Assembly: GCA_963678395.1 (NCBI GenBank)
Contig: OY782827.1
Span: forward strand, 790,506 to 814,505
Length of the DNA: 24,000 nucleotides
From: Acidaminococcaceae bacterium
Lineage (GTDB): Bacteria; Bacillota; Negativicutes; Acidaminococcales; Acidaminococcaceae
Reading direction: 5' to 3'
Within the stretch, counting starts at the first letter, position 1. Each line of letters opens with the position of its first letter. The notes under the pieces were generated by a model, which was given only the letters and a program-made list of their open reading frames with translations, was not told the origin of the DNA and made no database searches. Made by a program: the position numbers and the translations under genes. Below are positions 114 to 21,628 of the stretch, piece by piece.

Positions 114-1025
114 ATGAATTTAAAAGAACAGAATTACGTATGTACCTTAGCTCGTTGTAAAAGTTTCTCTAAAGCTTCTGAGGAGCTCTTTATATCACAA
201 CCGGCACTTAGTATATATATAAGTAAACTTGAGAAAAACTTAGGGACGACTCTTTTCACCAGAAAAGACAAAAAATTGGTACTAACTTATACAGGTGAAT
301 GCTATATAGAAAAGGCAAAAAAATGCTGCGTTTGCAGCGTGAATTTACCGCACAATTGGCAAAAATCAAGGGGGAACAGGCAGGATTAATCCGGATAGGT
401 ATGCAAAGAAGGCGAACTGCTTGCTTTTATGCACCACTTTTAGCTGCTTTCAAAAGAGAGTATCCAGCGGTGGAAGTTGAATTGTTGGACGGCATACATG
501 TGGAACTAGAAAATGCTTATAATAATGACGATATTGACTTGCTTTTGTGTAATAACGCAGATAAACGAGGAGATTCAGTAACTGATTTAATTTGTCAAGA
601 AAGGTTATTGGTAGCTTTATCGCCTAAAAATTCTGCTAATAAATTAGCCCAAAAAGTTCCTGGAGATAAATACAAAAAGTTGCCATTAAATTCTCTTGAG
701 GGAGAAACTTTTATTTTGCAAACTCCTCAGCAGGGGTTAAGGCGCAGTTGCGAAAAAAGCTATGCGTCAGGAAGGCGTGCAACCGGGAAAAGTTATTACT
801 GTAAGTAACATTGAAACGGCCGTACAATTAGTAGGAGAAAATATGGGCGTTTGTTTTAATCGAGAGACTTATGCTAAACATATGTATTATGACAAAAAGG
901 TGATGTATTATATTATTGGCGAACCACCTTATCAATCGGATTTTTCTTTGTTATACAAGAAAACATTAAAATTGAGTCCTTACATGAATCGTATGATAGA
1001 ACTCATAAAGGTATATGGGCAGTGA
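114..1025 (+). pseudogene. LysR-family transcriptional regulator, interrupted by two frameshifts (ORF pieces 114-389, 299-808, 762-1025)
   Basis: N-terminal LysR-type HTH (SFSKASEELFISQPALSIYISKLEKNLG) followed by a LysR substrate-binding-like region. The frame moves -1 at the A7 run 317-323 and +1 at the A6 run 753-758. The joined reading is continuous (...YIEKAKK|MLRLQREF... and ...RRSCEK|AMRQEGVQPGKVI...). Confidence 0.8.
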
Positions 1026-6511: not shown

Positions 6512-7648
6512 TTATGAATTAGTAAAAAAATGAATTTGATTTCTGCCATTGGCTTTAGCCTTATACATTGCACTATCGGCCCACTTAAGGATATTTTCTT
6601 TGCTGGCATCTTGACTACTGAAAAGTACGATGCCGATACTTGCTGTGGAATTATGGTTAACAATCTCAGGTTTCTTACAGACTAATAAATAAGGTTTTGC
6701 TAGAGCAAAACGAATTTTCTCAGCGACTATAGAGGCTTTCTCAGAGGCCGTTTCTTTATTGTTACCTAAATTATTGATAAGGACAACGAATTCATCGCCA
6801 CCAAAACGTGCTACGGTGTCTGTTGCACGCACACAACCTCGTATTCTTTGTGCTGCTTCTATGAGGAGCAAATCGCCAATGTTGTGACCTTGTTTGTCAT
6901 TTAGTGTTTTGAAGTTGTCTAAGTCTAAAAAGAACAATGCGTTATAGCATCCACTACGCTTGCTGGTAGCCATTGCTTGATCCAAACGATCATTTAAAAG
7001 ACGGCGATTAGGAAGATGTGTTAAAGGATCATAAAAGGCAAAAATACGCAGTTTTTCTTCGGCATTTTTACGTTCAGTTATATCTTCGCTTATACCCATA
7101 AGTTTTTCTAGACGTCCATTTTTGCCCAAAATAGGAATAAAACTTGATGCAAATATTTTTGGCGGAGAACCGCTGCCTGTGAATTCGAAGTGACTTGTTT
7201 CCCCTTTATATGCGCAATCAAGCAAATAGTTAATGTGGGGTCTATCATTAGTGCTAACTGCATCTAAATACAAACTGCCTGTTACATCTTTGCCGTTTTC
7301 AAAACCTAGCATGCGAAGACCGGCCGGGTTCATGAAGGTAACTTTACCATCAAGGTCTATTTCGTGGATGCTGACAGGAGAATTTTCTAATAATAAGCGG
7401 GTTTGATATTCTCTCTCTCTCAAAGCACGTGCTATCTTTTCTGTTTCTAGCTTGGCATCTTCAAGTTCTTTTGTGCGCTGACGAACTTGGTCTTCCAGAG
7501 TAATGGCGGTTTGAAACAGGTTGAAATTTGATCCTTGTACACAGGTATTGCGTTCGGCCCGATTCATTAACGATTGAATAATTTTGTTTAAACGCTTAAT
7601 TTCTTCTTGCAGGGCATTTATTATATCTACTTTAGTGTCGTTAGACAT
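6512..7648 (-). CDS. PAS domain-containing diguanylate cyclase (GGDEF)
   Basis: N-terminal coiled-coil, a PAS domain (ENSPVSIHEIDLDGKVTFMNPAGLRMLG...ISEDITERK), and a GGDEF domain with an intact GGDEF motif and an RxxD I-site five residues upstream (RATD-TVARF-GGDEF). I prefer the ATG at 7648 (GAAGG upstream, overlapping the FIST stop as ATGTCTAA) to the ORF-track start at 7678. Confidence 0.85.
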   Translation of the reverse strand: MSNDTKVDIINALQEEIKRLNKIIQSLMNRAERNTCVQGSNFNLFQTAITLEDQVRQRTKELEDAKLETEKIARALREREYQTRLLLENSPVSIHEIDLDGKVTFMNPAGLRMLGFENGKDVTGSLYLDAVSTNDRPHINYLLDCAYKGETSHFEFTGSGSPPKIFASSFIPILGKNGRLEKLMGISEDITERKNAEEKLRIFAFYDPLTHLPNRRLLNDRLDQAMATSKRSGCYNALFFLDLDNFKTLNDKQGHNIGDLLLIEAAQRIRGCVRATDTVARFGGDEFVVLINNLGNNKETASEKASIVAEKIRFALAKPYLLVCKKPEIVNHNSTASIGIVLFSSQDASKENILKWADSAMYKAKANGRNQIHFFTNS

Positions 7649-8807
7649 TTTGACCTTCATTTTCTGCTTTAGGGTCATAACCTATAGCACAGCCGGTGAG
7701 GGTTTGATTTACATGTACACCAAGAAATTGTTCGCCATAGCTACAAAAACCAACGACGTTATTATTTAAGAAAATTTCTTCAACCTGATCTTTTATACCA
7801 TTTCGTGAAATCTCTAGATTGCGCAGGATACAATCACAACCTAAAATAAGTTGTGGAGAGCCAATGTTCTCTTGAATTTTAGTGAAAGCCTGTTTAAGGT
7901 TGTCAACAAGATTTACGCCATGTGCTACTCTAAGAACTATGCCATCTTCAACAGCACAGTAGAAAGTTAAACTCCCGTCAGTGTTTGTTTTCTGGATGGA
8001 ACGAACATAATCGGTACCATCAATCATAACGACAACAGGTGAATCGGCAAAGTGTAGTGGATTAAGCTCACTAATTTTAACACCAACTAATCTTGCATAT
8101 TCTTTGGTTGCTGATAAGCCGTTAAGCTCATTAACAATACGTTTTTCAGGTTGTGCTTCAGTTACAACTAAGCGCTCATCGGTGGGAATAAAGTGCTGTG
8201 TTTTAAATAATTTAAAAGGCAAGGAAGTGTTTAATATAATTAGCACAGCACTATCAGAATGAAACTGACCGTTGCTATAAACTTGGGTTTGGATAAAATT
8301 TTGATCATCACCTGCGGAGCCGCCAAAGAGAGGGATCTTTCCTAAGGCGTATTGTAATGTGAATGCAACGGGTTCTTCCCGCATTGCCAGAGCATCTATT
8401 AACATGAAGGCAAAACAATTATTTGTTTCTATATTGGGAACTCGGCTTTCCAAATCTTGTAAAAGAGCTTGAGTAAAGTTATTACCGGTGGCCACATCAA
8501 AGTCACTTAAAGGGGCTATTCTTTCAGAAACGGCTACAAAGCTATCGGAGGCAAAGCTGACACCGGTTAAGCTGTGAGAACAATAACCACTAGGCCCGAT
8601 TTCACCTGCAGTGGTACAACCAACAACTTGAATACCTGCAAATAGACGATTTATTTCTTCAGCAATAATTGTAAGGTCATATTTACTGGAGGAAAAAAAT
8701 ATTACCAATTCCATGTTTTTTTGCGCAACTGCCGCATAAAATTCTGCTACTGCTATGCGCTCATCCTGTGAACACGACTGCCCTCGTCTAATACTGTTAT
8801 TGTTCAT
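7641..8807 (-). CDS. FIST (FIST_N + FIST_C) sensory domain protein
   Basis: 388 aa with GGAGG 7 nt upstream of the ATG. FIST-typical segments are present (VVGCTTAGEIGPSGY; C-terminal GFCSYGEQF...HVNQTLT). There is no output domain of its own, and it is coupled to the downstream GGDEF gene. Confidence 0.75.
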   Translation of the reverse strand: MNNNSIRRGQSCSQDERIAVAEFYAAVAQKNMELVIFFSSSKYDLTIIAEEINRLFAGIQVVGCTTAGEIGPSGYCSHSLTGVSFASDSFVAVSERIAPLSDFDVATGNNFTQALLQDLESRVPNIETNNCFAFMLIDALAMREEPVAFTLQYALGKIPLFGGSAGDDQNFIQTQVYSNGQFHSDSAVLIILNTSLPFKLFKTQHFIPTDERLVVTEAQPEKRIVNELNGLSATKEYARLVGVKISELNPLHFADSPVVVMIDGTDYVRSIQKTNTDGSLTFYCAVEDGIVLRVAHGVNLVDNLKQAFTKIQENIGSPQLILGCDCILRNLEISRNGIKDQVEEIFLNNNVVGFCSYGEQFLGVHVNQTLTGCAIGYDPKAENEGQNV

Positions 8808-10342: not shown

Positions 10343-11626
10343 TCAAAAATATCTTAAAAAAATATAAATATTGCAGATAATCATAGATAATAGCATCAAA
10401 GGAAAAGCTATTAAGAAAAATTTTACAAAAGAAATTGGATTGCCTCTTTGCGCGGCCATAGATGCAATAACTACATTGGCGCTTGCTCCAATAAGGGTTC
10501 CGAAACCACCAAGGCAGGCGCCTAGTGATAATGACCAGTAAATTGGCGCTAAATTACTAATTCCCATAGTTCCCATTTCTTTGATTAGGGGAAGTAAAGT
10601 AGCTACAAAGGGAATATTGTCGATAAAAGATGATGCTAATGCGCTTAACCAAAGAATAAGTATTGAGGTGAACTCAAGATTACCATGGGTCAAACTGGTT
10701 GTGGCATGTGCTAATATTTTGATTGTTCCTGTTTGTATTAAGGCCCCAACTAAAATGAAAAGACCTATAAAAAAGAAAATGGAAAGCCATTCAATGCGAC
10801 TAAAAACAGTTGTAAGGACTGCTTCATTGGTGGGAATGGTAATAAGCATTAGCAAACTGGCGCCTGTTAAAGCAGCAGTTGCTGTCTGCATATTTAATAC
10901 GGAATGGAACATGAAAAGCAAGATGGTAAAGGTTAAGACAAAAAGGCATTTTTTTAATAGAGCCATGTCTTTTATTTCACTTTTTTCATTTAAACGCATA
11001 ACATTTTCTTGCAACTCTGGAAGTGTGTGCAGTTTTTTGTGGTAAATAAGATATATAATAAGCATATTTATGACGAAGACTATTATGCATATAGGTGTCA
11101 AATTAGTTATAAAATCAATAAAGTCAAATCCTGCCGCGCTGCTTATCATTACATTAGGCGGATCACCGATTAAGGTTGCAGCACCACCTATATTGGCGGC
11201 AATAATTTGAGCTATTAAGAAAGGTTTTGCATCAATTTTCAGTTGCGAAGTAATGCTAAAGGTTACAGGAACCATTAATAAAACCGTTGTTACATTATCA
11301 AGAAAGGCGGAGAATACAGCCGTCAAAGTTGCCAAGGCAAAAAGTAGTGCCGCAGGTCTTGCGTTAGCCTTTTTTGCTGCCCAAAGGGCCATAAAATTGA
11401 AGAGACCTGTTTCACTTGTAATATTGACGATAATAATCATCCCAATTAGAAGACCTACGGTATTAAAATCAATACAAGCTATAGCTTGTGTTTGGTTCAA
11501 AATTCCCAGTACTATCAACAAAGAAGCACCGGCAAGAGCAACAACTGTACGATGAATTTTTTCCGAAATAATAAGAACATAGGAAAATGTAAAAATAATC
11601 ATTGCCACAACTGCACTGTTTGTCAT
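10343..11626 (-). CDS. ArsB/NhaD-superfamily (citrate-transporter-like) anion/ion permease
   Basis: 427 aa, polytopic, with AGGAGG 8 nt upstream. Shows the two-repeat transporter architecture with the GDPPN-type hairpin motif (LIGDPPNVMI) seen in ArsB/NhaD/SLC13-like permeases. Confidence 0.7.
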   Translation of the reverse strand: MTNSAVVAMIIFTFSYVLIISEKIHRTVVALAGASLLIVLGILNQTQAIACIDFNTVGLLIGMIIIVNITSETGLFNFMALWAAKKANARPAALLFALATLTAVFSAFLDNVTTVLLMVPVTFSITSQLKIDAKPFLIAQIIAANIGGAATLIGDPPNVMISSAAGFDFIDFITNLTPICIIVFVINMLIIYLIYHKKLHTLPELQENVMRLNEKSEIKDMALLKKCLFVLTFTILLFMFHSVLNMQTATAALTGASLLMLITIPTNEAVLTTVFSRIEWLSIFFFIGLFILVGALIQTGTIKILAHATTSLTHGNLEFTSILILWLSALASSFIDNIPFVATLLPLIKEMGTMGISNLAPIYWSLSLGACLGGFGTLIGASANVVIASMAAQRGNPISFVKFFLIAFPLMLLSMIICNIYIFLRYF

Positions 11627-11851
11627 TCAACTCGCCTCCTACTATAACCGCCTTTGAAAAAATAGTTGGGCGTATTATTTCCTGATATAGTGAAGTGTTG
11701 CACTTATAAGTCTAGTTATAATAAAAAAAGCAAACGTTTAATATGAAATATTTACTCTATTATACATTTTCCTATGCGCATATGTATATATATATAGCAT
11801 AATATAAGATTACATAATATAATAATTTGGCTTGTAACTATATTATATGTA

Positions 11852-11880: not shown

Positions 11881-11916
11881 TCAAGGCAGGTAAATTTTTG
11901 AATGGAGGGTGATAAT

Positions 11917-12258
11917 ATGCCAGCTTTTGCAAACCCATTTCAGGGAAACGTCCAAAGAAAGTTAACAAAGGAAGAGCTAATTCAAGCCGTTAGACTTGAT
12001 ATTGCAGGAGAACTTGAGGCTATATATCTATATGATGCTCATGTTCAAGCGACTGATGATGAAAGAGCTAAAAAGGTTATTTCTGATATTCGCGATGAGG
12101 AAAAGTCTCATGTAGGTGAATTGATGACTTTACTTAGAATTCTTGATCCGCATGAAGCAGAACTTTTCATGGCGGGGGAAAAAGAAGTGCAAGAAATGCT
12201 TGCAGAGTTGGAAAAGTCAGCTAAAATTAAGACAATAGCTGAAATAGGAAGCAACTAA
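11917..12258 (+). CDS. Encapsulated-ferritin (EncFtn)-like ferritin-family protein
   Basis: 113 aa from the ATG at 11917 (GGAGGG 7 nt upstream). GELEAIYLYDAHV...IRDEEKSHVGELMTLL matches the E-x2-E...Y...EEKxH ferroxidase-centre pattern of EncFtn proteins (compare R. rubrum EELEAVDWYDQRV...RDEEKEHAAMTLEWL, from memory). Confidence 0.65.
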   Translation: MPAFANPFQGNVQRKLTKEELIQAVRLDIAGELEAIYLYDAHVQATDDERAKKVISDIRDEEKSHVGELMTLLRILDPHEAELFMAGEKEVQEMLAELEKSAKIKTIAEIGSN

Positions 12259-12259
12259 T

Positions 12260-12391
12260 ATGGATTTAGTTATTGGACAAGATATGGCAGTTGCCTATCT
12301 TGAACAGGCAGAACTTAACCATAGCTTTATAATTCTTGAGACAGCGTTCCCACGTATTAAGAGGGAACGGGCAATAGTTGTTTTTGAGTGA
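12260..12391 (+). pseudogene. Remnant of a family-1 encapsulin shell gene (C-terminal ~43 codons only)
   Basis: A short ORF below the track cutoff, MDLVIGQDMAVAYLEQAELNHSFIILETAFPRIKRERAIVVFE, aligns by eye to the extreme C-terminus of encapsulins (T. maritima ...[45 protein letters not shown]). It starts 1 nt after the EncFtn stop (TAAtATG) and is followed by a terminator. Confidence 0.55.
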
Positions 12392-12430
12392 TGTAGGCTA
12401 GAAAATAAAATATAGAAAAGCTTGAAATAC

Positions 12431-12488
12431 AACCTCCGAATTGGACAGTGAAAAGTAAATTCATTGTTTACTATTGGAGGTTTTTGTT
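12431..12488 (+). terminator. Candidate rho-independent terminator after the EncFtn / encapsulin-remnant unit
   Basis: Outer stem aacctcc / ggaggtt with inner pairing (agtaaa / tttact), followed by tttttgttt. Confidence 0.5.
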
Positions 12489-12807
12489 TACGCCAAAAAC
12501 CAGACTAGCTGTCACTGTTATTGGCTAATATGGGGTGAATATTTTCCAAGGAACTCTTGTACCATTGTGAGAGAAGTTTTTTTTGTTCCAATTTGTGATA
12601 AAATAAATTTATAAGAATTAGTTCGTTAATAAGAACAACATAAGTAATGAGTGTTTTTTGTACATGAATTATAAAGTAGATTAAATTACCAATTGAGTTG
12701 TCTCATATTTTTAATCGTAAAATTTATTCTCACAGCCTTGTCAAAGGGTGGAACCGAAACTGAAATGATGTTGGGTATGCGGAACTGTGGATGAATGGAG
12801 GCGAAAA

Positions 12808-15800
12808 ATGTTTGGGAGTGGGTTGGAAGAGCTTAAACAATTTATAACAAGTGCTTATTTTTGCATAGGAGCACTAATTACGGTTTGTTTTTTAACTTTT
12901 TTGTTTTTTCATTACCGGGTTTTGGGTGTCAAAAAAAAATTGCTTTCCGTGCGAACGTTGAAAAATAGCGAGATGCTCGGAATAGAAGAGATGCAGCAGA
13001 AGATGCTGCATCTCTCTGAGTTGCAAAAAAATGTTAAATGGGGAAATTATAACTTTCTTATACGCTATCGTAATAGAGTTTTATATGATAGTTTTAATGA
13101 AATTCGAGCTAAACTTTCTGAAGTTAAAAAAGAAGTCATAAGTTTGATACCAGCATCACGTTGGCTTGTTGACAATTTTCAGATGATATATAGAGAGCTG
13201 GAAAAAGTAAGCGATACTAGAATAGGGGATAGACCATTACCACTATTGCAAGAGGGCGAATTTCGCGGCTACCCTAGAATTTATGTGGTAGCCAGAGAAA
13301 TGTTAGAGCTTACGGGAGGCCGGTTAAGTGAAGAAAACATATTAACGTTACTAAAGAGCTACCAAAAAGGAACCATGCTTGCGGCAGCAGAGTTATGGGC
13401 TCTTCCGGAAATGCTTAGCCATAGCCTTTTAGAGAATATTATTGTTGTAGCAGAAGATATACTTTGGGTAACAAGTATAAAAACTCAAGCGGATGTTTTT
13501 GTTAAAGAAAGTTTTTTGCAAAATCCAGATAACCCTAGCATAGATATGCTCTTAAAAAAACTAGAAATTAAAGAAGCGGCAAAGGTTTATTTTCATTCAC
13601 AGGTTGTTTTTTTGTTGAAAAACATGTCTTTTGATGAAGTATCAATACAAAAATATTTAGAATACCATTGTACGCATAATTGTAAATTATTACGACCATC
13701 AAATTTATTTCAACAAGAAGGCAAGTTTGAGTCCTGTCTTGAAGCAAAAATACGTGAATTGCTTATAAGTTTGCGGGGAATCCATGAAATAGATGGAGAA
13801 GAACTTTTTGAGCAGCTATCTATATTAGAGGCTATATTACGACAAGATCCGGCTGGTGTATATGCGAAAATGGATGTGGAAAGCAGAGGGAATTATCGAG
13901 CTGTTATAGAAAAACTCATAGTAAAAAGAAATTTAGACGAAGGCATGGCAGCAAGAACTTGTTTGGAACTTGCACGGATAAATAGTTCCAATCTACGGTG
14001 TGCTAATCATGTAGGAACATACTTGGTAGGTCCTGGATATAATATTTTCAAAGCTAAAGTATTAAATAGAAACATACCGAAAAACAAAAAATACAAACAA
14101 AATGTTAAGGGAACAGCCTATTTCTGTTTAGTGGCAGCAATCTTCACATTGTTAATTTGTTTTTTATCGTATATTACACACAGGGTGCAAATACTCGGTG
14201 GTAGCTATAGCTACGCGCTTTTTTTCTTTTCAGTCGCATTTTTACTTTTTGGCGGAGCTATTGATTTGTCCAATAGAATATTTGCTAAGCTTGTTACTGT
14301 TGGTGCTTTACCAGCTATGGATTTCCAAAGCACTATTCCTAATAGTGCTAGGACATTTGTAGTGATGCCAATAATTGTTTTTACGAAAGAACAAGCAGCG
14401 GAAAGTATTGCTAGACTTCTTAAACAATATTTGGGTAACCAACAAGAGAATCTTTACTTTGCGCTATTAGTTGATTTTGCTGATGCTGAGGCTATGCATT
14501 TGCCCTCTGATAAAACGATAGAAGAAGAATTGACTAGTGGCATAAATAAAATTAACGCGCTTTATCCTTCCGATTATAGAAGGTTTTCTCTTTTTATCCG
14601 TGAGCGAAAATGGAATGCTGCGGAAAACTGCTATATGGGATGGGAGCGTAAAAGAGGAAAACTTGAAGAGTTTAATAGTCTGCTTAGTGGTGATAAGGGT
14701 ACTAGTTATGTAATAAAATTGTGCGATGAAAGAATTATAAATACATTTAAATATGTTATTACACTAGATTCTGATTCTGATTTATTAAAAAATATGGCGG
14801 CAAAATTAGTTGGTATAATCCATCATCCGCTTAATAGTCCGGAAATTGATTCGGATAGAAGCAAGGTTTCAGCAGGGTATGGTATAATTCAACCTGCCGT
14901 AAGCAATCATATTTATAAAGGCAGCTTATTTTCACAAGTGTTTAGTGGCAAGCAAGGCCTTGACCCTTATGCTCGTTCCATATTCGATATATATCAAGAT
15001 GTATTTGGAGAGGGTATATTTGTGGGAAAGGGTATTTATGTAATAAGTGCTTTTCATAATATTCTACACCAAAAATTTCCTGAAAACAGAGTGTTGAGTC
15101 ATGATTTATTGGAGAGTTGTTTTGTAAAAACCGCTTTTTCTTGTCAAGCTAGGATAATGGAAGATTATCCTAAAAATCTTCTTTCTTATGCTAAGCGAGA
15201 ACATCGTTGGATTAGAGGCGATTGGCAGTTATTACCTTGGCTTTTCAAACATAGCCAGTTGTCGAAATTATCAAGGTGGAAAATACTGGGAAATATTCTT
15301 AGCAGTCTAACGCCCTTGTTTAAATTATTTGTAATAATACTTAGTCTGGCTTTATTGCCGAAGTTTTATTATGTTGGTCTTATAATTGCACTTTTTCCTG
15401 ATGTATTTAACTTGTTATTTTTAATTTTTGAAACCATAATATATAAGTTGCGTAGCCCCAAGACAACGCTGGTCTATAAAGATTTTTTCAGAGAAATAAA
15501 AATTCGTTGTCAACGTAGTTTTTTTGAGTTGCTTTTTATGCCCTATATGGTCTTTGTTATCTCAGATGCTATATTACGTACAGTATACCGCCTATGTATA
15601 AGTAAGCAACATTTGCTTAATTGGAATACGTCAGCAATAACAGAAAAACAAACTAATAAGACAAAAGAGGCATATTATCGTAGTATGCATATTTCTGTTA
15701 TTATGGCTGTAGGTATTATCGTAGTATTACTACTTTTTGTTAAACAAAGTATTGCAAAAACATTTATTTTCATAACATTAGCCATTCTTTGGGGAAGTTC

Positions 15801-17772
15801 TTATCTTTGGGCTTATAATATTGGACAGGAAAAAGAGCGCTCTACACAAGAAGTCTTAGGTAGTGATGAAAAAGAGCTGCGCAAAATAGCTCGTAAGACA
15901 TGGCAATTTTTTAAAGATTATGCAACAAGTGATAATAATTGGTTGTGCCCGGATAATTATCAAAAAGAACCCAAAGAAAAGGTTACAGATAAAACATCTC
16001 CTACTAATATTGGCTTGCAAATGTTAGCAGTAGTGTCAGCTAGAGATTTGGGGTTTGAAACATTATCTGCCACTGTTTGTACTATAGAGAAAATGTTGGA
16101 TTCTATTGCTAGACTGCCAAAATGGAGGGGACATCTTTTTAACTGGTATAATATAAAGACGTTCGAGGTATTAGGACCACAATATATATCTACGGTAGAT
16201 AGTGGGAACTTTTTAGGGCATTTATTAACCGTAAAAAATGGACTAAAAGCTAGTGTGGTAAAGCCGTTGTTTTCTAAAACGCAAATAGACGGCTTACGAG
16301 AGCTTGGCGAGCTTTGTCAAGAAAAGCTAGAGCTGCAGGATAGCTATGCAACAGTGGAAGAGTTTGCCGCTACTATAAAAAACGCACAAAAAATTTTAGA
16401 GAAAAAGCAAGTAAATTCTACTTCTCAAGATATTTTCGCTGGTGAATTGCTAAAAAGTATGGATGCGTTACAGGAAGAGTTAGATATATTGAACCTTAAG
16501 GGTTATTCTTGTACAAATTGCCCTACTCTTAAAGAACGGGCAGAAACCGGGAATAAGTATGCACAGAATTTAGCGAAAAAAATAGCTGAAATTACTAAAA
16601 CCATAGATAAAATTGTGGCAGAGGCTGATTTTAGATTTTTGTACAACAAGAAACGCGCTTTATTTCATATTGGTTATCACGTTTCTTCCAAAAGTCTTGA
16701 TGAAGGCTGTTACGATTTGATTGCCTCTGAATGTCTTTTAACCAGCGTTTTGAATATTGCCCAAAATACGGTGCCGCTGAAGCATTGGTCAAAACTGGGT
16801 AGACCATTGACGTTGATAAAGGGATCACCTTGTTTTGTTTCCTGGAGTGGCACAATGTTTGAGTACCGTATGCCAAGTTTAGTGTTACAAGAATATGAAG
16901 GGTCGGTATTTTCAGAAACAGCTAGAGCTGTTGTGGCAGAAAATATTGCTTTTGCAAAAAAAAGAATGCTGCCTTGTTGGGGCATATCAGAATCGCAGTA
17001 TTATCAATTCGATCAAGATGGCAACTATCAGTACAGAGCATTTGGAGTACATAGTTTGCGGCTACAAACCTCATTAGGTAATCAAAATCTTGTGTTTGCA
17101 CCTTATGCAACTATGTTAGCACTTAGTTATGCAGACAAAGAGTGTATTGCCAATCTGAAAAATTTAGCCCAACTTGGTTGTGTTGGTACTTATGGTTATT
17201 ATGAAGCCATAGATTTTAATGGGCCAAACCCTGTTACGACAAAACCTTTTTCCATTGTAAAATCATTTATGGCACATCATCAAGGCATGATTTTAGTAGC
17301 AATCAATAATTATCTAAATAATGGGATTATGCAAAAAAGATTCCATAGTGAGCCTATGATACAAGCTGTTGCATCCTTGCTTGAGGAAAAGCGAGGGTCA
17401 TATTTTGTTAATATTCCTAAGGAAGGTTACAATATCAACTTCAAGGAAATAGAATTAAAACACGAAATACCAGAGAGCAGATACATTAATAAAGTGGCTC
17501 CAGAGATGCCGGTAGCGCATTTTCTTTCCAACGACAATTATTCTATTTTGGTAACGTCTGATGGTGATGGCTTTAGTAAATATAAGGATATGATGCTCTA
17601 CAGATGGAGACCAAATATTTATGACTGCACAGGGAATTACATTTTCATTAAGGATGTTAAGACAGGCAGCGTTTGGAGTAACACCTATAATCCTACAAAA
17701 AAGAACCGGACGAATACCATGTTATATTTTCTCTTCATCAGGCAGAATTCAAACGTCGAGATGGCGATATAA
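12808..17772 (+). CDS. cgs: Cyclic beta-1,2-glucan synthase (Cgs/ChvB/NdvB-type), segment 1: TM region + GT84 glycosyltransferase + cyclisation domain + start of GH94-like region; ends by frameshift
   Basis: ATG at 12808 lies 6 nt after GGAGG (the ORF track starts at GTG 12787). Multi-TM N-terminus; GT84-like core with ITLDSDSD (14767-14781 encode DSDSD) and HRWIRGDWQ (15202-15228); more TM helices; then ARKTWQFFKDY...WLCPDNYQ...TSPTNIGLQML, typical of the Cgs cyclisation/glucoamylase-like domain. The 0-frame runs only 23 codons past the A_AAA_AAG site at 17697-17703. Confidence 0.85.
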   Translation: MFGSGLEELKQFITSAYFCIGALITVCFLTFLFFHYRVLGVKKKLLSVRTLKNSEMLGIEEMQQKMLHLSELQKNVKWGNYNFLIRYRNRVLYDSFNEIRAKLSEVKKEVISLIPASRWLVDNFQMIYRELEKVSDTRIGDRPLPLLQEGEFRGYPRIYVVAREMLELTGGRLSEENILTLLKSYQKGTMLAAAELWALPEMLSHSLLENIIVVAEDILWVTSIKTQADVFVKESFLQNPDNPSIDMLLKKLEIKEAAKVYFHSQVVFLLKNMSFDEVSIQKYLEYHCTHNCKLLRPSNLFQQEGKFESCLEAKIRELLISLRGIHEIDGEELFEQLSILEAILRQDPAGVYAKMDVESRGNYRAVIEKLIVKRNLDEGMAARTCLELARINSSNLRCANHVGTYLVGPGYNIFKAKVLNRNIPKNKKYKQNVKGTAYFCLVAAIFTLLICFLSYITHRVQILGGSYSYALFFFSVAFLLFGGAIDLSNRIFAKLVTVGALPAMDFQSTIPNSARTFVVMPIIVFTKEQAAESIARLLKQYLGNQQENLYFALLVDFADAEAMHLPSDKTIEEELTSGINKINALYPSDYRRFSLFIRERKWNAAENCYMGWERKRGKLEEFNSLLSGDKGTSYVIKLCDERIINTFKYVITLDSDSDLLKNMAAKLVGIIHHPLNSPEIDSDRSKVSAGYGIIQPAVSNHIYKGSLFSQVFSGKQGLDPYARSIFDIYQDVFGEGIFVGKGIYVISAFHNILHQKFPENRVLSHDLLESCFVKTAFSCQARIMEDYPKNLLSYAKREHRWIRGDWQLLPWLFKHSQLSKLSRWKILGNILSSLTPLFKLFVIILSLALLPKFYYVGLIIALFPDVFNLLFLIFETIIYKLRSPKTTLVYKDFFREIKIRCQRSFFELLFMPYMVFVISDAILRTVYRLCISKQHLLNWNTSAITEKQTNKTKEAYYRSMHISVIMAVGIIVVLLLFVKQSIAKTFIFITLAILWGSSYLWAYNIGQEKERSTQEVLGSDEKELRKIARKTWQFFKDYATSDNNWLCPDNYQKEPKEKVTDKTSPTNIGLQMLAVVSARDLGFETLSATVCTIEKMLDSIARLPKWRGHLFNWYNIKTFEVLGPQYISTVDSGNFLGHLLTVKNGLKASVVKPLFSKTQIDGLRELGELCQEKLELQDSYATVEEFAATIKNAQKILEKKQVNSTSQDIFAGELLKSMDALQEELDILNLKGYSCTNCPTLKERAETGNKYAQNLAKKIAEITKTIDKIVAEADFRFLYNKKRALFHIGYHVSSKSLDEGCYDLIASECLLTSVLNIAQNTVPLKHWSKLGRPLTLIKGSPCFVSWSGTMFEYRMPSLVLQEYEGSVFSETARAVVAENIAFAKKRMLPCWGISESQYYQFDQDGNYQYRAFGVHSLRLQTSLGNQNLVFAPYATMLALSYADKECIANLKNLAQLGCVGTYGYYEAIDFNGPNPVTTKPFSIVKSFMAHHQGMILVAINNYLNNGIMQKRFHSEPMIQAVASLLEEKRGSYFVNIPKEGYNINFKEIELKHEIPESRYINKVAPEMPVAHFLSNDNYSILVTSDGDGFSKYKDMMLYRWRPNIYDCTGNYIFIKDVKTGSVWSNTYNPTKKNRTNTMLYFLFIRQNSNVEMAI

Positions 17773-18851
17773 CTTCTCACACGGTAGTAAGTCTTTCGCC
17801 GGATTATGATTTGGAAATAAGAAAAGTTACTTTGACAAATCATAGTGATAAGCCTAAAATCATAGAATTAACAAGCTACTTGGAGATAGTTGCCAATAGC
17901 TTTGCAGCCGAACTTGCTCATCCGGCTTTTAACAAACTTTTCATAGAAAACAGTTTCTTAGAAGAAAGCAATATGGTTCTGGCTAAAAGGCGAGGCAGCC
18001 TTAGTACGCCAAAACCGTATTTACTACATATGGTTAAGGCAAATACGGATTTTTTGCAGAAAATAGAATATGAAAACGATCGTTTAAGATTTATTGGACG
18101 TAATAATACGGTGCAAAACCCTATAGCAGTTATAGATAGTATGCCATTTTCTAATAATACTATTTTCTCTGATGATCCTATTATAAGCATGCGTGCGAGA
18201 GTTGTATTACCAGCATTCGGCAAAGTTAGTGTTTACTTTATTACAGGGGTTTGTGCAAATATTGTTGCAGCAAAAAGCTTAGGTAAAGAATTAAATGAGG
18301 TGGCTTGGATTGAGGAGATGAATGAAAAGTTCAGATTGCAAAGTATTCTTGAACTTAAGTATCTAGCTATGACAACGTCACAGCTTAATGCCTGCCAGGA
18401 CTTAGTCGCACCGATATTTTATCCTGCAAGGGCTTATCGTGGACCCTTAGAAAATATGCGACGTAATTGTAAAAATCAAAGAGACTTATGGAGATTTGGT
18501 ATTTCAGGAGACAATCCTATACTGCTATTTAGGGTTACGTCTAGTGAAGCCTTGGGAATAATGCAAGATGTATTTAAAGTTTATGAATATTTGCGTATAA
18601 ATGAAGTAAAGGTGGATTTAGTAGTGCTTAGTGAGGGTAAGCATGGTTATATGACCGAACTCAATAATTTATTGCAGGAAATGACTACTTCCCTTAAGAT
18701 ATTTGATGAAAATAGTGATAAGCATAATATATTTATACTAGATGCCTACCAATTAACCCCAGCAGAAGTTGATTTACTTCTTACAGTAGCCAAGGTAGTC
18801 TTTACGGAAGATACAGGGATTTATTTCCGTAAGATAAAGGAAGAACGGTAA
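17703..18851 (+). CDS. cgs: Cyclic beta-1,2-glucan synthase, segment 2 (-1 frame continuation; first GH94 N-terminal-like domain region)
   Basis: The -1 frame from 17703 reads EPDEYHVIFSLHQAEFKRRDGDITSHTVVSLSPDYDLEIRKVTLTNHSDKP..., continuing the domain begun in segment 1. The ORF-track TTG at 17811 has no RBS and lies inside this domain, so it is not a credible independent start. The segment ends at TAA 18849-18851. Confidence 0.75.
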   Translation, partial: EPDEYHVIFSLHQAEFKRRDGDITSHTVVSLSPDYDLEIRKVTLTNHSDKPKIIELTSYLEIVANSFAAELAHPAFNKLFIENSFLEESNMVLAKRRGSLSTPKPYLLHMVKANTDFLQKIEYENDRLRFIGRNNTVQNPIAVIDSMPFSNNTIFSDDPIISMRARVVLPAFGKVSVYFITGVCANIVAAKSLGKELNEVAWIEEMNEKFRLQSILELKYLAMTTSQLNACQDLVAPIFYPARAYRGPLENMRRNCKNQRDLWRFGISGDNPILLFRVTSSEALGIMQDVFKVYEYLRINEVKVDLVVLSEGKHGYMTELNNLLQEMTTSLKIFDENSDKHNIFILDAYQLTPAEVDLLLTVAKVVFTEDTGIYFRKIKEER

Positions 18852-18878
18852 TTATAACGTGGCTTTTCTAGAAAGAAG

Positions 18879-21323
18879 GTGCCGTATTTGAAAAAAAGGA
18901 AGATAAATTTGTCTGAAAAGGAAACCAATGGTAGAAAATATGAATTTTTCAATGGTTTTGGTGGCTTTGTAGCAAATGGACGCGAGTATGAAATATTTTT
19001 GCAAGATGATAATAGGCCACCGGCACCGTGGGTTAATGTTATAGCTAATGAAAATTTTGGCTTCTTTATTTCTGAAAGAGGAGCAGGACCAACTTGGGCT
19101 GGTAATAGCCACGAAAATAAAATAACGCCTTGGTCTAATGATCCTGTAAGTGATATTGCTTCCGAAGCCATATACATTAAAGAAGAAGGAAAGGAAAAGT
19201 TATTAACGCCTACGCCCATAGGGAGAAAAGGGCATGGGGACTATTTAGTAAGACATGGATTTGGCTATTCAATTTTTTGCCATGAAGAAGCATTAATAGA
19301 ACAAGAGCTTAAGGTTTTCACACCACTAGCAGAGCCTATGAAAATTTGGATATTGAAACTTAAAAATAACTCTAATATTGAAAAAAATCTAAGTAGTGCT
19401 TATTATGTGGAGTGGGTCCTTGGAGTTAACAGGGAAGATACGAGTCCTTATATTGTATCTTCTTATAATAATGAACATGAATATTTAGCAGCAAGAAATA
19501 TCTATAGTGATGCTTTAAGCAAGCAAAGTTGTTTTATTTTCTCTAGTGAGCGCATAGTTTCCTACACTGGTGACAGAAAAGAATTTTTGGGTAAAAAAGG
19601 TTCCATAGATAAACCGGAAGGGTTGAAAGGCAAGTTGTCTTGTACGACTGGTGTAGGCTATGATTCTTGTGGCGTTATCCAGGTCGCTGTAAAACTATTG
19701 CCTCGAGAAACAAAAACTATTGTTTTTGGTCTGGGGCAAAGCAGTTCTAGTACTGATATTAGCCAGTTGCAGAAAAAATATCAAAGTTTAATCAATATAA
19801 ACAGTGAACTGCATAAAGTTCAGGATTACTGGCATGAATTATTGGGAGTAGTGCAAGTTAAAACTACTGATAGAGCTATGGACATACTTATTAATGGTTG
19901 GTTGTTATATCAAACTATAAGCTGTAGATTAAATGCTCGAACGGCTTTTTATCAATGCGGTGGGGCCTATGGATTTAGAGATCAGTTGCAGGATGTATTA
20001 GCTCTTTTGGAGGTTGCACCGACAGTTACACGCCGTCAAATTTTGTTGGCGTGCAGCAGGCAGTTTGAAGAAGGAGATGTACAACATTGGTGGCATCCAC
20101 CATTTGGCTTGGGTGTTCGGACTAGGATAACTGATGATTTATTATGGCTTCCCTATGTTACAAGTGCTTATATAAAAAGTACTGGTGACTATGCACTATT
20201 AAAAGAAAAAGTAAATTATATCAAGGGGGATTTATTGGAAAATGGCCAAAATGAATCTATGTTTACGCCAAAAATTTCAGAGGTCAGCGGTAGCGTTTAC
20301 GAGCATTGCAAAAAAGCCATACTTCATACTCGTTTTGGTGAACATGGGCTGCCTCTTATAGGAACAGGCGATTGGAATGATGGCATGGATAAAGTTGGTG
20401 TAGGAGGAAAAGGAGAAAGCGTTTGGCTAGGTTGGTTTTTTGTTGCCGTGTTAAAAAATATTATACCTATTTGTTATCACGAAAATGACAGTGAATTTGC
20501 TAATGCCCAGGAAAAGTTAAGAAAAGAAGTTTTAAAAAATATAGAAGAGTTTGCTTGGGATGGTAATTGGTATATAAGAGCTTTTGATGATGAAGGAGAA
20601 AAACTAGGCTCAAGTGTAGGCGATGAATGTAAGATTGATTCTATAAGCCAATCTTGGAGTGTACTATCGGAAGGAGCGGAGAAAAAAAGAGCTGTGGAGG
20701 CAATTAATTCATCAGAGAAATATCTTGTACAAGAGAAAGAGGGACTTTCTTTGCTCTTGTTCCCACCGTTTAATAAGACATTGAAAAATCCTGGTTATAT
20801 TAAAAACTATTATCCTGGAATCAGAGAAAACGGGGGACAATATTCTCATGCAGCTGTATGGTTGGCCATGGCTTGCACCAAGGTTGGAGATTATAGCCGT
20901 GGATACAAACTTTTCACTATGCTTAACCCAATTCATATTACGTTGAAATACAATGATGCTCTTCGCTACAAAAGAGAACCCTATATAATGACAGCGGATA
21001 TTTCCTCTGCAGTAGGCAATGCCGGTATAGGGGGGTGGAGTTGGTATACTGGTTCGGCTAGCTGGATGTATCAAGGACTTGTTAATACCTTTTTGGGGAT
21101 TAAAAAAGAAGGTAAGTATCTAACTGTTTTACCTGGTGCGCCTGCTATATTTGGCGAATACAAGGTATGGTATAAATATGGGCATTCTTCCTATGAGATA
21201 CAAGTAAGTCAAAGAAAAAGCAACGATTATATTGTTAGAAATGTCAGAATTGATGGAGTTGTTTTAGAGGGTAATAAAATAGAATTGCTAGATGATGGCA
21301 AGCGTCACATTGTTACAGTTTGA
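18879..21323 (+). CDS. GH94 phosphorylase-like module (C-terminal part of Cgs, or a free-standing GH94 enzyme)
   Basis: 814 aa in the same frame as segment 2 but separated from it by TAA-TTA-TAA. It starts with the GH94 N-terminal domain signature (YEFFNGFGGFVANGREYEI...PAPWVNVIAN) and has the catalytic-barrel motifs GDWND (20367-20381) and GGQYSHAAVW. AGAAGGTG (18874-18881) could serve the TTG at 18888; the GTG at 18879 lies inside this SD-like element. Confidence 0.8.
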   Translation: MPYLKKRKINLSEKETNGRKYEFFNGFGGFVANGREYEIFLQDDNRPPAPWVNVIANENFGFFISERGAGPTWAGNSHENKITPWSNDPVSDIASEAIYIKEEGKEKLLTPTPIGRKGHGDYLVRHGFGYSIFCHEEALIEQELKVFTPLAEPMKIWILKLKNNSNIEKNLSSAYYVEWVLGVNREDTSPYIVSSYNNEHEYLAARNIYSDALSKQSCFIFSSERIVSYTGDRKEFLGKKGSIDKPEGLKGKLSCTTGVGYDSCGVIQVAVKLLPRETKTIVFGLGQSSSSTDISQLQKKYQSLININSELHKVQDYWHELLGVVQVKTTDRAMDILINGWLLYQTISCRLNARTAFYQCGGAYGFRDQLQDVLALLEVAPTVTRRQILLACSRQFEEGDVQHWWHPPFGLGVRTRITDDLLWLPYVTSAYIKSTGDYALLKEKVNYIKGDLLENGQNESMFTPKISEVSGSVYEHCKKAILHTRFGEHGLPLIGTGDWNDGMDKVGVGGKGESVWLGWFFVAVLKNIIPICYHENDSEFANAQEKLRKEVLKNIEEFAWDGNWYIRAFDDEGEKLGSSVGDECKIDSISQSWSVLSEGAEKKRAVEAINSSEKYLVQEKEGLSLLLFPPFNKTLKNPGYIKNYYPGIRENGGQYSHAAVWLAMACTKVGDYSRGYKLFTMLNPIHITLKYNDALRYKREPYIMTADISSAVGNAGIGGWSWYTGSASWMYQGLVNTFLGIKKEGKYLTVLPGAPAIFGEYKVWYKYGHSSYEIQVSQRKSNDYIVRNVRIDGVVLEGNKIELLDDGKRHIVTV

Positions 21324-21348: not shown

Positions 21349-21386
21349 AAAATACGAATCAGACAATTGTCTGATTCGTATTTTTG
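21349..21386 (+). terminator. Rho-independent terminator after the glucan synthase locus
   Basis: Perfect hairpin aaatacgaatcagaca-attg-tctgattcgtattt followed by a T-run, 26 nt after the stop at 21323. Confidence 0.85.
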
Positions 21387-21465
21387 TGTTGAACTGTTTA
21401 TTGGAGGGCGATTGTTTTAATGGTAAACGAATAATTATTGCTTTTTCGAATAATAAGTGCTATGA

Positions 21466-21499
21466 TTCCTTTGGGTTAGCCTAGGCTAACCCAAAGGAA
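21466..21499. repeat. 34-bp perfect loopless palindrome
   Basis: ttcctttgggttagcct|aggctaacccaaaggaa is exactly self-complementary, centred on CCTAGG, with no adjacent T-run. It lies between the cgs terminator and the exonuclease gene. Confidence 0.9.
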
Positions 21500-21628
21500 A
21501 TATTTAATCAGTTTTTAAAGAATGACGATATCGCTGATATCTGCTATACTTTGGTAAAGCAATCCGGTAATATGTCAAGCCTCAAAAAATAAAGAATTGT
21601 AATCAAATCAGGGAAAAGAGGAGGATAT

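Follow-up and report, generated by a model that had tools for sequence, protein, structure and literature searches.

The closest described systems for the locus analyzed here are Cgs/ChvB of Agrobacterium tumefaciens (8RF0, 8RF9, 8RFE, 8RFG; PMC10901819), Cgs of Brucella abortus and NdvB of Sinorhizobium. Cgs is a single chain of ~320 kDa; the product expected of this family is cyclic beta-1,2-glucan with a DP of ~17-25, formed from UDP-glucose. In the solved A. tumefaciens structure the segments GP1, RFL (Rossmann-fold-like subdomain), GP2 and GP3 form one rigid body, and scaffolding and phosphorolytic control of chain length are the roles proposed for the C-terminal half (PMC10901819). These two roles are hard to separate because truncations inactivate the A. 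tumefaciens enzyme (PMC10901819). A Firmicute member of the family, TiCGS of Thermoanaerobacter italicus (Thit_1831, GH189, 8WY1), has already been studied (PMC10834661); characterisation of TiCGS covered only its isolated cyclization domain. This study was concerned with positions 12808-21323 of a 24,000-nucleotide stretch of contig OY782827.1 from an Acidaminococcaceae bacterium, referred to as the window, in which all coordinates are numbered. Sequence comparison confirmed that this region encodes the full Cgs/ChvB architecture in order: N-terminal domain (NTD), GT84 glycosyltransferase, a region of six transmembrane (TM) segments, GH189 cyclase and GH94 phosphorylase. The locus is best explained as a two-gene, split Cgs-type synthase that carries a private one-base loss in gene 1, a reading given a probability of roughly 0.8.

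The open reading frame (ORF) scan returned three ORFs on the same strand (12787/12808..17772, 17811..18851 and 18879..21323). ORF1 and ORF2 lie in different frames (junction 1), and ORF2 and ORF3 share a frame with TAA TTA TAA at 18849-18857 between them (junction 2). Comparison with related loci (L-numbers) and protein matches (P-numbers) resolves the region into the following features:

12808..17703, + strand: gene 1 (cgs large subunit) 5' of the frameshift, codons 1-1632; NTD, GT84, TM helices, GH189 cyclase and the first third of GP1 (the first GH94 supersandwich)
17696..17703, + strand: frameshift site CAAAAAAG, with one base fewer than in every relative
17703..18851, + strand (-1 frame): gene 1 3' of the frameshift, codons 1633-2014 and stop; the remainder of GP1 and RFL
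18852..18887, + strand: spacer of 36 nt, with a Shine-Dalgarno (SD)-like AGAAGG at 18874-18879, 8 nt 5' of the TTG start
18888..21323, + strand: gene 2 (cgs small subunit), 811 aa, TTG start; GH94 module consisting of GP2 (supersandwich) and GP3 ((alpha/alpha)6 catalytic barrel)

The ATG at 12808 is the counterpart of the start called in the closest related locus, L001. The part of gene 1 at 17703..18851 is colinear with the C-terminal 380 aa of relatives of 2,003-2,039 aa and ends at the identical position.

Homology to Cgs and conserved catalytic residues

The homology of the predicted products to Cgs is far above chance. Pfam identified the Glycoamylase domain PF10091 in ORF1 (E 5e-25) and a GH94 supersandwich, PF06165, broken over two frames, its profile positions 3-73 closing ORF1 and 110-251 opening ORF2. 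ORF3 contains a second PF06165 and the GH94 catalytic domain PF17167 (E 5e-117). The PDB sequence search aligned ORF1 colinearly with residues 84-1620 of A. tumefaciens Cgs (8RF0/8RF9, E ~1e-239) and ORF3 with residues 2042-2807 of 8RF0 (E ~1e-198); the best cellobiose phosphorylase reached 4e-77. In bit scores, gene 2 obtained 665 against the GP2-GP3 part of Cgs versus 263 against the best-scoring free GH94 enzyme. The GT84 core matched 8RF0 residues 512-935 (E 1e-81); GT84 was assigned by this alignment, the Pfam and NCBIfam libraries used having no GT84 model. The cyclase region matched 8WY1 (E 1.6e-112, its best PDB match) and 8RF0 (E 2e-98). Thus the proposal of the first-pass annotation, that three co-directional ORFs reproduce the Cgs/ChvB/NdvB architecture in order, is borne out by these matches, and the joined protein matches Cgs globally rather than just locally. 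The motifs quoted in that annotation (DSDSD, HRWIRGDWQ, WLCPDNYQ..TSPTNIGLQML, GDWNDGM and QYSHAAVW) are all present in the translations.

The roles of individual residues were taken from work on A. tumefaciens Cgs (PMC10901819, PMC11842490). In that enzyme Y694, in the IF1-homology loop, is the priming tyrosine (PMC10901819), and D624, D626 and D739 of GT84 are acidic residues required for activity (PMC10901819, PMC11842490). All the catalytic residues checked are conserved in the window:

GT84 D624/D626: LDSDSD in the window (LDADT in 8RF0), conserved
GT84 D739: LSHDLLE in the window (LSHDLLE in 8RF0), conserved
GT84 priming Y694: GLDPY in the window (GIDPY in 8RF0), conserved
Cyclase D1104: VDSGN in the window, conserved
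Cyclase E1300 (TiCGS E1356): ASEC in the window, conserved
Cyclase E1386 (TiCGS E1442): WGISE in the window, conserved
GH94 D2393: GFRDQ in the window, conserved
GH94 catalytic D2528: GDWNDGM in the window, conserved

The locus therefore resembles A. tumefaciens Cgs in its domain order (NTD, GT84, TM, cyclase, GP1, RFL, GP2, GP3), in its colinearity over nearly the full length and in keeping the DxD and SHD motifs, the priming Tyr, the cyclase Asp and two Glu, and the GH94 Asp. It resembles TiCGS in the segments of the catalytic Glu residues (ASE.. and WGISES) and in HHQGM. In a crude hydropathy scan, hydrophobic segments were located at residues 16-34, 439-457, 462-488, 826-874 (probably two helices), 905-926 and 960-978, which fit the expected places of about six TM helices flanking the GT domain. 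The linear osmoregulated periplasmic glucan enzymes OpgH/MdoH were rejected as the family of this locus: similarity is weak and confined to the GT core (E 4e-7), the NCBIfam scores were 15-29 bits versus cut-offs of 328-884, and the architecture is different.

The locus differs from A. tumefaciens Cgs in several ways. Every characterised member is a single polypeptide of ~2,800-2,900 aa (~2,830 aa in A. tumefaciens), whereas the clade of the window has two polypeptides, of 2,003-2,039 and 811-821 aa, cut at the border of RFL and GP2. The reading frame in the window genome is interrupted by a 1-nt deletion at 17696-17703, which places a frameshift inside GP1 of the large gene. In addition, the host is a low-GC member of the Acidaminococcaceae, and no Cgt/ChvA exporter lies nearby. 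Gene 2 resembles stand-alone GH94 enzymes in having a supersandwich, an (alpha/alpha)6 barrel and the catalytic Asp, but its GP1 counterpart sits on a separate polypeptide, that of gene 1.

The gene boundary at the RFL/GP2 border

Junction 2 corresponds to a boundary that is conserved among relatives. Among the 120 best matches in a protein search with the conceptually joined 2,836-aa query, 113 were ~1,964-2,167 aa long and covered 69-71% of the query, which is equivalent to ORF1 plus ORF2. Six others were fused forms of ~2,818-2,857 aa with 41-50% identity (P0007, P0008 and P0018-21), and one was the 1,654-aa call from the window itself. Genomic context was inspected in L001 (92% identity), L004 (81%), L002 (57%) and L003 (49%); the closest relatives are metagenome-assembled genomes (MAGs) of Acidaminococcaceae. 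In these four loci a gene of 2,003-2,039 aa is followed by a separate GH94 gene of 811-821 aa at a spacing of -14 to +37 nt. An 811-821-aa gene occupies the equivalent position throughout L001-L009. The split is present in all nine of these loci (49-92% identity), and the second gene has either its own SD and start codon or a start that overlaps the first gene. The large proteins of the relatives end at a common alignment column, and the small ones begin ~20 residues before the conserved EFFNGFGGF. For example, L001 has the same TAA TTA TAA, SD-like sequence and spacer, and the gene caller places the start of gene 2 at the equivalent TTG. L002 has GGAAAGGGGA 5' of a TTG start; in L003 the two genes overlap by 14 nt, and in L004 they are 5 nt apart.

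A survey of at least 84 loci gave a similar picture. Where the GH94 part is at least 57% identical (nine loci), a stop always lies 7-44 codons ahead of GP2; most loci at 53% identity or less, from many phyla, are in frame for more than 2,000 codons or reach a contig edge. In a neighbor-joining (NJ) tree the split forms all fall into a single clade that arises from within the fused forms, P0007 and P0008 being its closest fused outgroups; this topology fits a single fission. That fission would date back to the ancestor of a Firmicutes clade with members in Lachnospiraceae, Oscillospiraceae and the present Acidaminococcaceae lineage. The position of the cut is the border between RFL (1847-2012) and GP2 of the A. 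tumefaciens structure. Because all nine related loci are split at this point, each with its own SD and start or an overlap, junction 2 is read from these alignments as a natural gene boundary, and the native state as two genes (2,014 and 811 codons) rather than one or three. The survey thus indicates a conserved gene pair and not unrelated adjoining genes.

Several other loci in the survey were unusual. L051 (L051:5079-12376, a Gammaproteobacteria MAG) is also split at the RFL/GP2 border, with a frame change, which represents either an independent fission or an error. In L048 (L048:3813-12370, a Chloroflexia MAG) the cgs gene is in at least seven frame pieces and in L055:3871-12448 there is a shift within the cyclase; these breaks look like long-read errors or pseudogenes. 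Five loci (L035, L050, L057, L060 and L082) contain the GP module alone (GP1-RFL-GP2-GP3, query residues ~1540-2836) as an ORF of ~1,300 aa, for example L060:8576-12394 of Mesorhizobium sp. LjNodule214. No GT84 or cyclase match was found in the upstream sequence at hand for them, and their domain content suggests stand-alone Cgs-like phosphorylases with the RFL insert.

The mechanism proposed for the split synthase follows by homology from the solved A. tumefaciens enzyme. Gene 1, at 2,014 codons when repaired, would encode a membrane-anchored subunit with the N-terminal scaffold, GT84, TM helices, GH189, GP1 and RFL, and gene 2, at 811 codons with its own SD and TTG, a soluble GH94 subunit with GP2 and GP3. 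The large subunit would glucosylate itself at the Tyr of GLDPY and use UDP-glucose to extend a beta-1,2 chain. The GH94 subunit would dock on GP1/RFL and trim over-long chains by phosphorolysis, which would set the chain length, and the GH189 domain would then close the ring by transglycosylation. Association of the two subunits is suggested because the genes are always adjacent and appear translationally coupled, and because GP1 and RFL are kept in gene 1. We lean slightly towards the broader view that a Firmicutes clade, including the diderm Acidaminococcaceae, makes cyclic beta-1,2-glucans with a detachable length-control subunit, a separate soluble GP2-GP3 docking on the GP1/RFL platform of a membrane synthase-cyclase. 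If this is true, ring-size control and C-terminal scaffolding would operate in trans, with subunit stoichiometry as a possible means of tuning them.

Two alternatives to the two-gene synthase concern this boundary. The locus might be one giant fused cgs gene recently broken twice, by a frameshift and by a nonsense mutation, as the ~2,850-aa fused homologues in other Firmicutes (41-50% identity; P0007, P0008 and P0018-21) and the common frame of ORF2 and ORF3 would allow. However, all nine related loci, which come from several families, have the same stop position (in L001 even the same TAA TTA TAA) with an SD and a start codon after it, and a split is implied by 113 of the 120 best protein matches. 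The conserved stop in the alignment of relatives and the locus survey refute a double break at junction 2, and this reading is considered extremely improbable. It might also be that gene 2 is an independent catabolic GH94 phosphorylase, of the cellobiose or sophoro-oligosaccharide type, that merely adjoins a gene for a GT84-cyclase. Its size and domain set are those of stand-alone GH94 enzymes, it matches cellobiose phosphorylases (E 4e-77) and such proteins are named "cellobiose phosphorylase" in some sources. On the other hand, it is much nearer to GP2-GP3 of Cgs (E 1e-198, colinear with 2042-2807), it is always directly 3' of gene 1 in the relatives inspected, sometimes overlapping it, and no sugar-uptake or catabolic genes are conserved nearby. 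Moreover, gene 1 ends where GP2 should start, and the GP1 and RFL that it retains would be left without a role in the absence of GP2 and GP3. An independent phosphorylase is thus regarded as very unlikely, and the two-gene synthase is preferred.

The split form has some bearing on earlier work and on annotation. No description of a two-gene Cgs was found in the searchable Cgs papers, an incomplete set whose silence amounts to no more than absence of evidence; the locus represents a known enzyme family in an apparently undescribed split form. Judging from sequence matches, Cgs-type genes are common in anaerobic Firmicutes, and to our knowledge no cyclic glucan, exporter or physiological role has been reported in those that have them. 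Databases label the large half as "glucoamylase family protein" and the small half as "cellobiose phosphorylase." The natural cut at the RFL/GP2 border provides a ready-made system for asking whether GP2-GP3 works in trans. A pair of ~2,015 and ~815 aa should not be flagged as broken, unlike the 1,654-aa call in this genome, which deserves the flag.

The one-base deletion in gene 1

Relative to L001 (8.9 kb compared, 91.6% nucleotide identity), the frame is broken only once, at 17696, where L001 reads CCT ACC AAA AAA GAA and the window reads CCT ACA AAA AAG AAC. L004 reads ACA AAA AAA GAA, and the lesion can equally be read as A7 reduced to A6. The alleles at the site are TACCAAAAAAG in L001 and L085, TACAAAAAAAG in L004 and TACAAAAAAG in the window. 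L085, from a species of the L001 type, was the one contig found in a metagenome scan, and it has the intact allele. Four proteins (P0001, P0270, P0271 and the partial P0269) read through the site as NPTKKEPDEY. In the window the 0-frame after the deletion runs through A_AAA_AAG and meets a stop at 17770-17772 following 22 out-of-frame codons. The deletion breaks a folded supersandwich (GP1), and the product of gene 1 as assembled is 1,654 aa. Junction 1 is, from these comparisons, a one-base deletion private to the window genome.

The ratio of nonsynonymous to synonymous substitution rates (dN/dS) against L001 was 0.149 for gene 1 5' of the frameshift, 0.082 for the part 3' of it and 0.168 for gene 2, with similar values against L004. 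Constraint is not relaxed downstream (dN/dS 0.08), and therefore the lesion is either very recent or not real; the cgs copy in the window is probably inactive or mis-assembled. The first-pass annotation had treated both junctions as breaks of one giant gene. This holds for junction 1, which is a private lesion, and fails for junction 2, which is a natural boundary in nine of nine loci. Its opinion that the locus is not an old decayed pseudogene agrees with the intact motifs and with the low dN/dS.

The chance that the deletion is a real, very recent inactivating mutation is put at about even. On that side, the same window has a 733-bp deletion in an encapsulin gene and a second frame change in a LysR gene that is not necessarily in a homopolymer, and 38 long homopolymers of the locus, A8 and A9 runs among them, show no other loss of frame. 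A serious competitor, held with somewhat less than even confidence, is that assembly or sequencing produced the frameshift by undercalling an A7 homopolymer, in which case gene 1 would be intact (2,014 codons) and the two-gene synthase would be working. One-base undercalls in homopolymers are the commonest long-read error, and the ACA AAA AAA of L004 makes the A6 of the window an A7 minus one base. There is no excess of amino-acid changes downstream, no other frame-breaking difference occurs in the 8.9 kb compared with L001, one frame change of the LysR gene falls at an A7 run, and the source assembly is a single 2.16-Mb contig. Against an undercall stand the in-frame homopolymers just noted and the lesions beyond base-call error, namely the encapsulin deletion and the LysR change possibly outside a homopolymer; such lesions indicate that the genome does hold genuinely decayed genes. 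An unlikely third reading is that the deletion is real but leaky, a -1 slip at A_AAA_AAG restoring the wild-type NPTKKEPDEY and some full-length large subunit. The heptamer is in phase, the joined product equals that of the relatives at the junction, and A_AAA_AAG is the dnaX slippery sequence of Escherichia coli, a classic -1 slippery site of bacteria. A dnaX-type shift is stimulated by an SD 10-14 nt 5' of the site and by a hairpin 3' of it. Here no relative shows a shift at this position, folding of the 94 nt downstream is no stronger than in shuffled sequence (z 0.2), and the closest SD-like GGAG, 18 nt upstream, is too far away to stimulate. Basal slippage would amount to only a few percent and would depend on the tRNA-Lys set of the host.

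Two regulatory candidates were rejected. Programmed -1 frameshifting of the dnaX type does not agree with the in-frame relatives, the downstream z of 0.2 and the lack of a well-placed SD, and basal leakiness alone remains of it. Phase variation does not agree with a tract as short as A6/A7, whose length does not vary out of frame in any relative. The truncation point of the window product corresponds to A. tumefaciens residue ~1620. A. tumefaciens constructs of residues 1-1540/1587 and 1-1846 were inactive in vivo and did not complement (PMC10901819). PMC10834661 cites work on B. abortus in which a minimal N-terminal region was found to keep cyclization activity. If the deletion is real, residual synthesis with uncontrolled length would be possible.

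Some points weigh against the two-gene synthase with a private lesion. A real mutation and an assembly error can be separated only with reads, and the tree that places the split forms in one clade is a quick NJ tree with no support values. The physical association of the subunits is inferred only from gene adjacency and from fused homologues. No ABC exporter of the ChvA/Cgt type is present in the 24-kb window, as the first-pass annotation had stated, and none is conserved beside the loci of relatives. Lastly, we know of no split-type organism for which a cyclic glucan has been shown.

Genomic neighbourhood

The neighbours of the locus in the window are a CitMHS transporter, EncFtn, an RNase_T exonuclease and Nramp. 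Across genera only the gene pair itself is conserved, and no glucan-modifying gene was found in the window or conserved beside the loci of relatives. Other features in and around the locus are:

11902..12393, + strand: EncFtn and encapsulin remnant, with 12247-12393 as the 3' remnant (last ~147 nt) of the encapsulin gene
12384..12411, + strand: promoter-like TTGAGT-16-TAAAAT at the head of the ~400-nt leader, a consensus match only, the site count being no higher than in shuffles
21466..21499, + strand: hairpin with a perfect 15-bp stem (TTCCTTTGGGTTAGCC TAGG CTAACCCAAAGGAA), ~140 nt 3' of the gene 2 stop; one found versus 0.2 expected in shuffles

The hairpin may be an operon terminator with a weak T-tail or a protein-binding palindrome. 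The leader of ~400 nt 5' of gene 1 (12394-12807) is ~90% conserved with L001 (12402-12807 lies inside the 91.6% aligned block) apart from two mutually compensating 1-nt indels, at 12562 and 12577. An Rfam scan of the entire window at gathering thresholds gave no matches, and relaxed thresholds for the leader (12240-12830) brought up nothing but a miRNA match attributable to chance (E 0.93); no known riboswitch, for example for c-di-GMP, was found. A regulatory RNA in the leader is possible.

The earlier description of an EncFtn remnant unit and an exonuclease as neighbours agrees with this list, the encapsulin gene being mostly deleted. The window lacks positions 581-1313 of L001 (~733 bp), and with them most of the encapsulin gene; in L001 and L004 both EncFtn and Linocin_M18 (encapsulin) are intact. 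The EncFtn gene loses its final ~41 nt to the same deletion, and the C-terminus of the orphan EncFtn is therefore altered. The EncFtn C-terminus is the usual seat of the cargo-targeting peptide. The LysR-type regulator at 114-1025 (+) is in three frames, with HTH_1 at 114-389 and LysR_substrate profile positions 2-120 at 299-808 and 124-205 at 762-1025. The first frame change is at an A7 run (317-323) and the second between 741 and ~760, not necessarily in an A6 run; the broken gene is either a pseudogene or a hotspot of indel errors. In L001, flavodoxin and DUF3793 genes (10474-11832) lie between the GH94 and exonuclease genes; neither is found in the window (21353-21619) or in L004, and the L001 lineage probably gained them by insertion. 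On the minus strand of the window two genes share 38 nt, one for a FIST-domain protein (7641-8807) and one for a PAS-GGDEF diguanylate cyclase (6512-7678). L004 has the same FIST/GGDEF pair as separate adjoining genes, followed by a second FIST gene, and by gene order and domain content this looks like a conserved signalling pair a few kb from the glucan locus.

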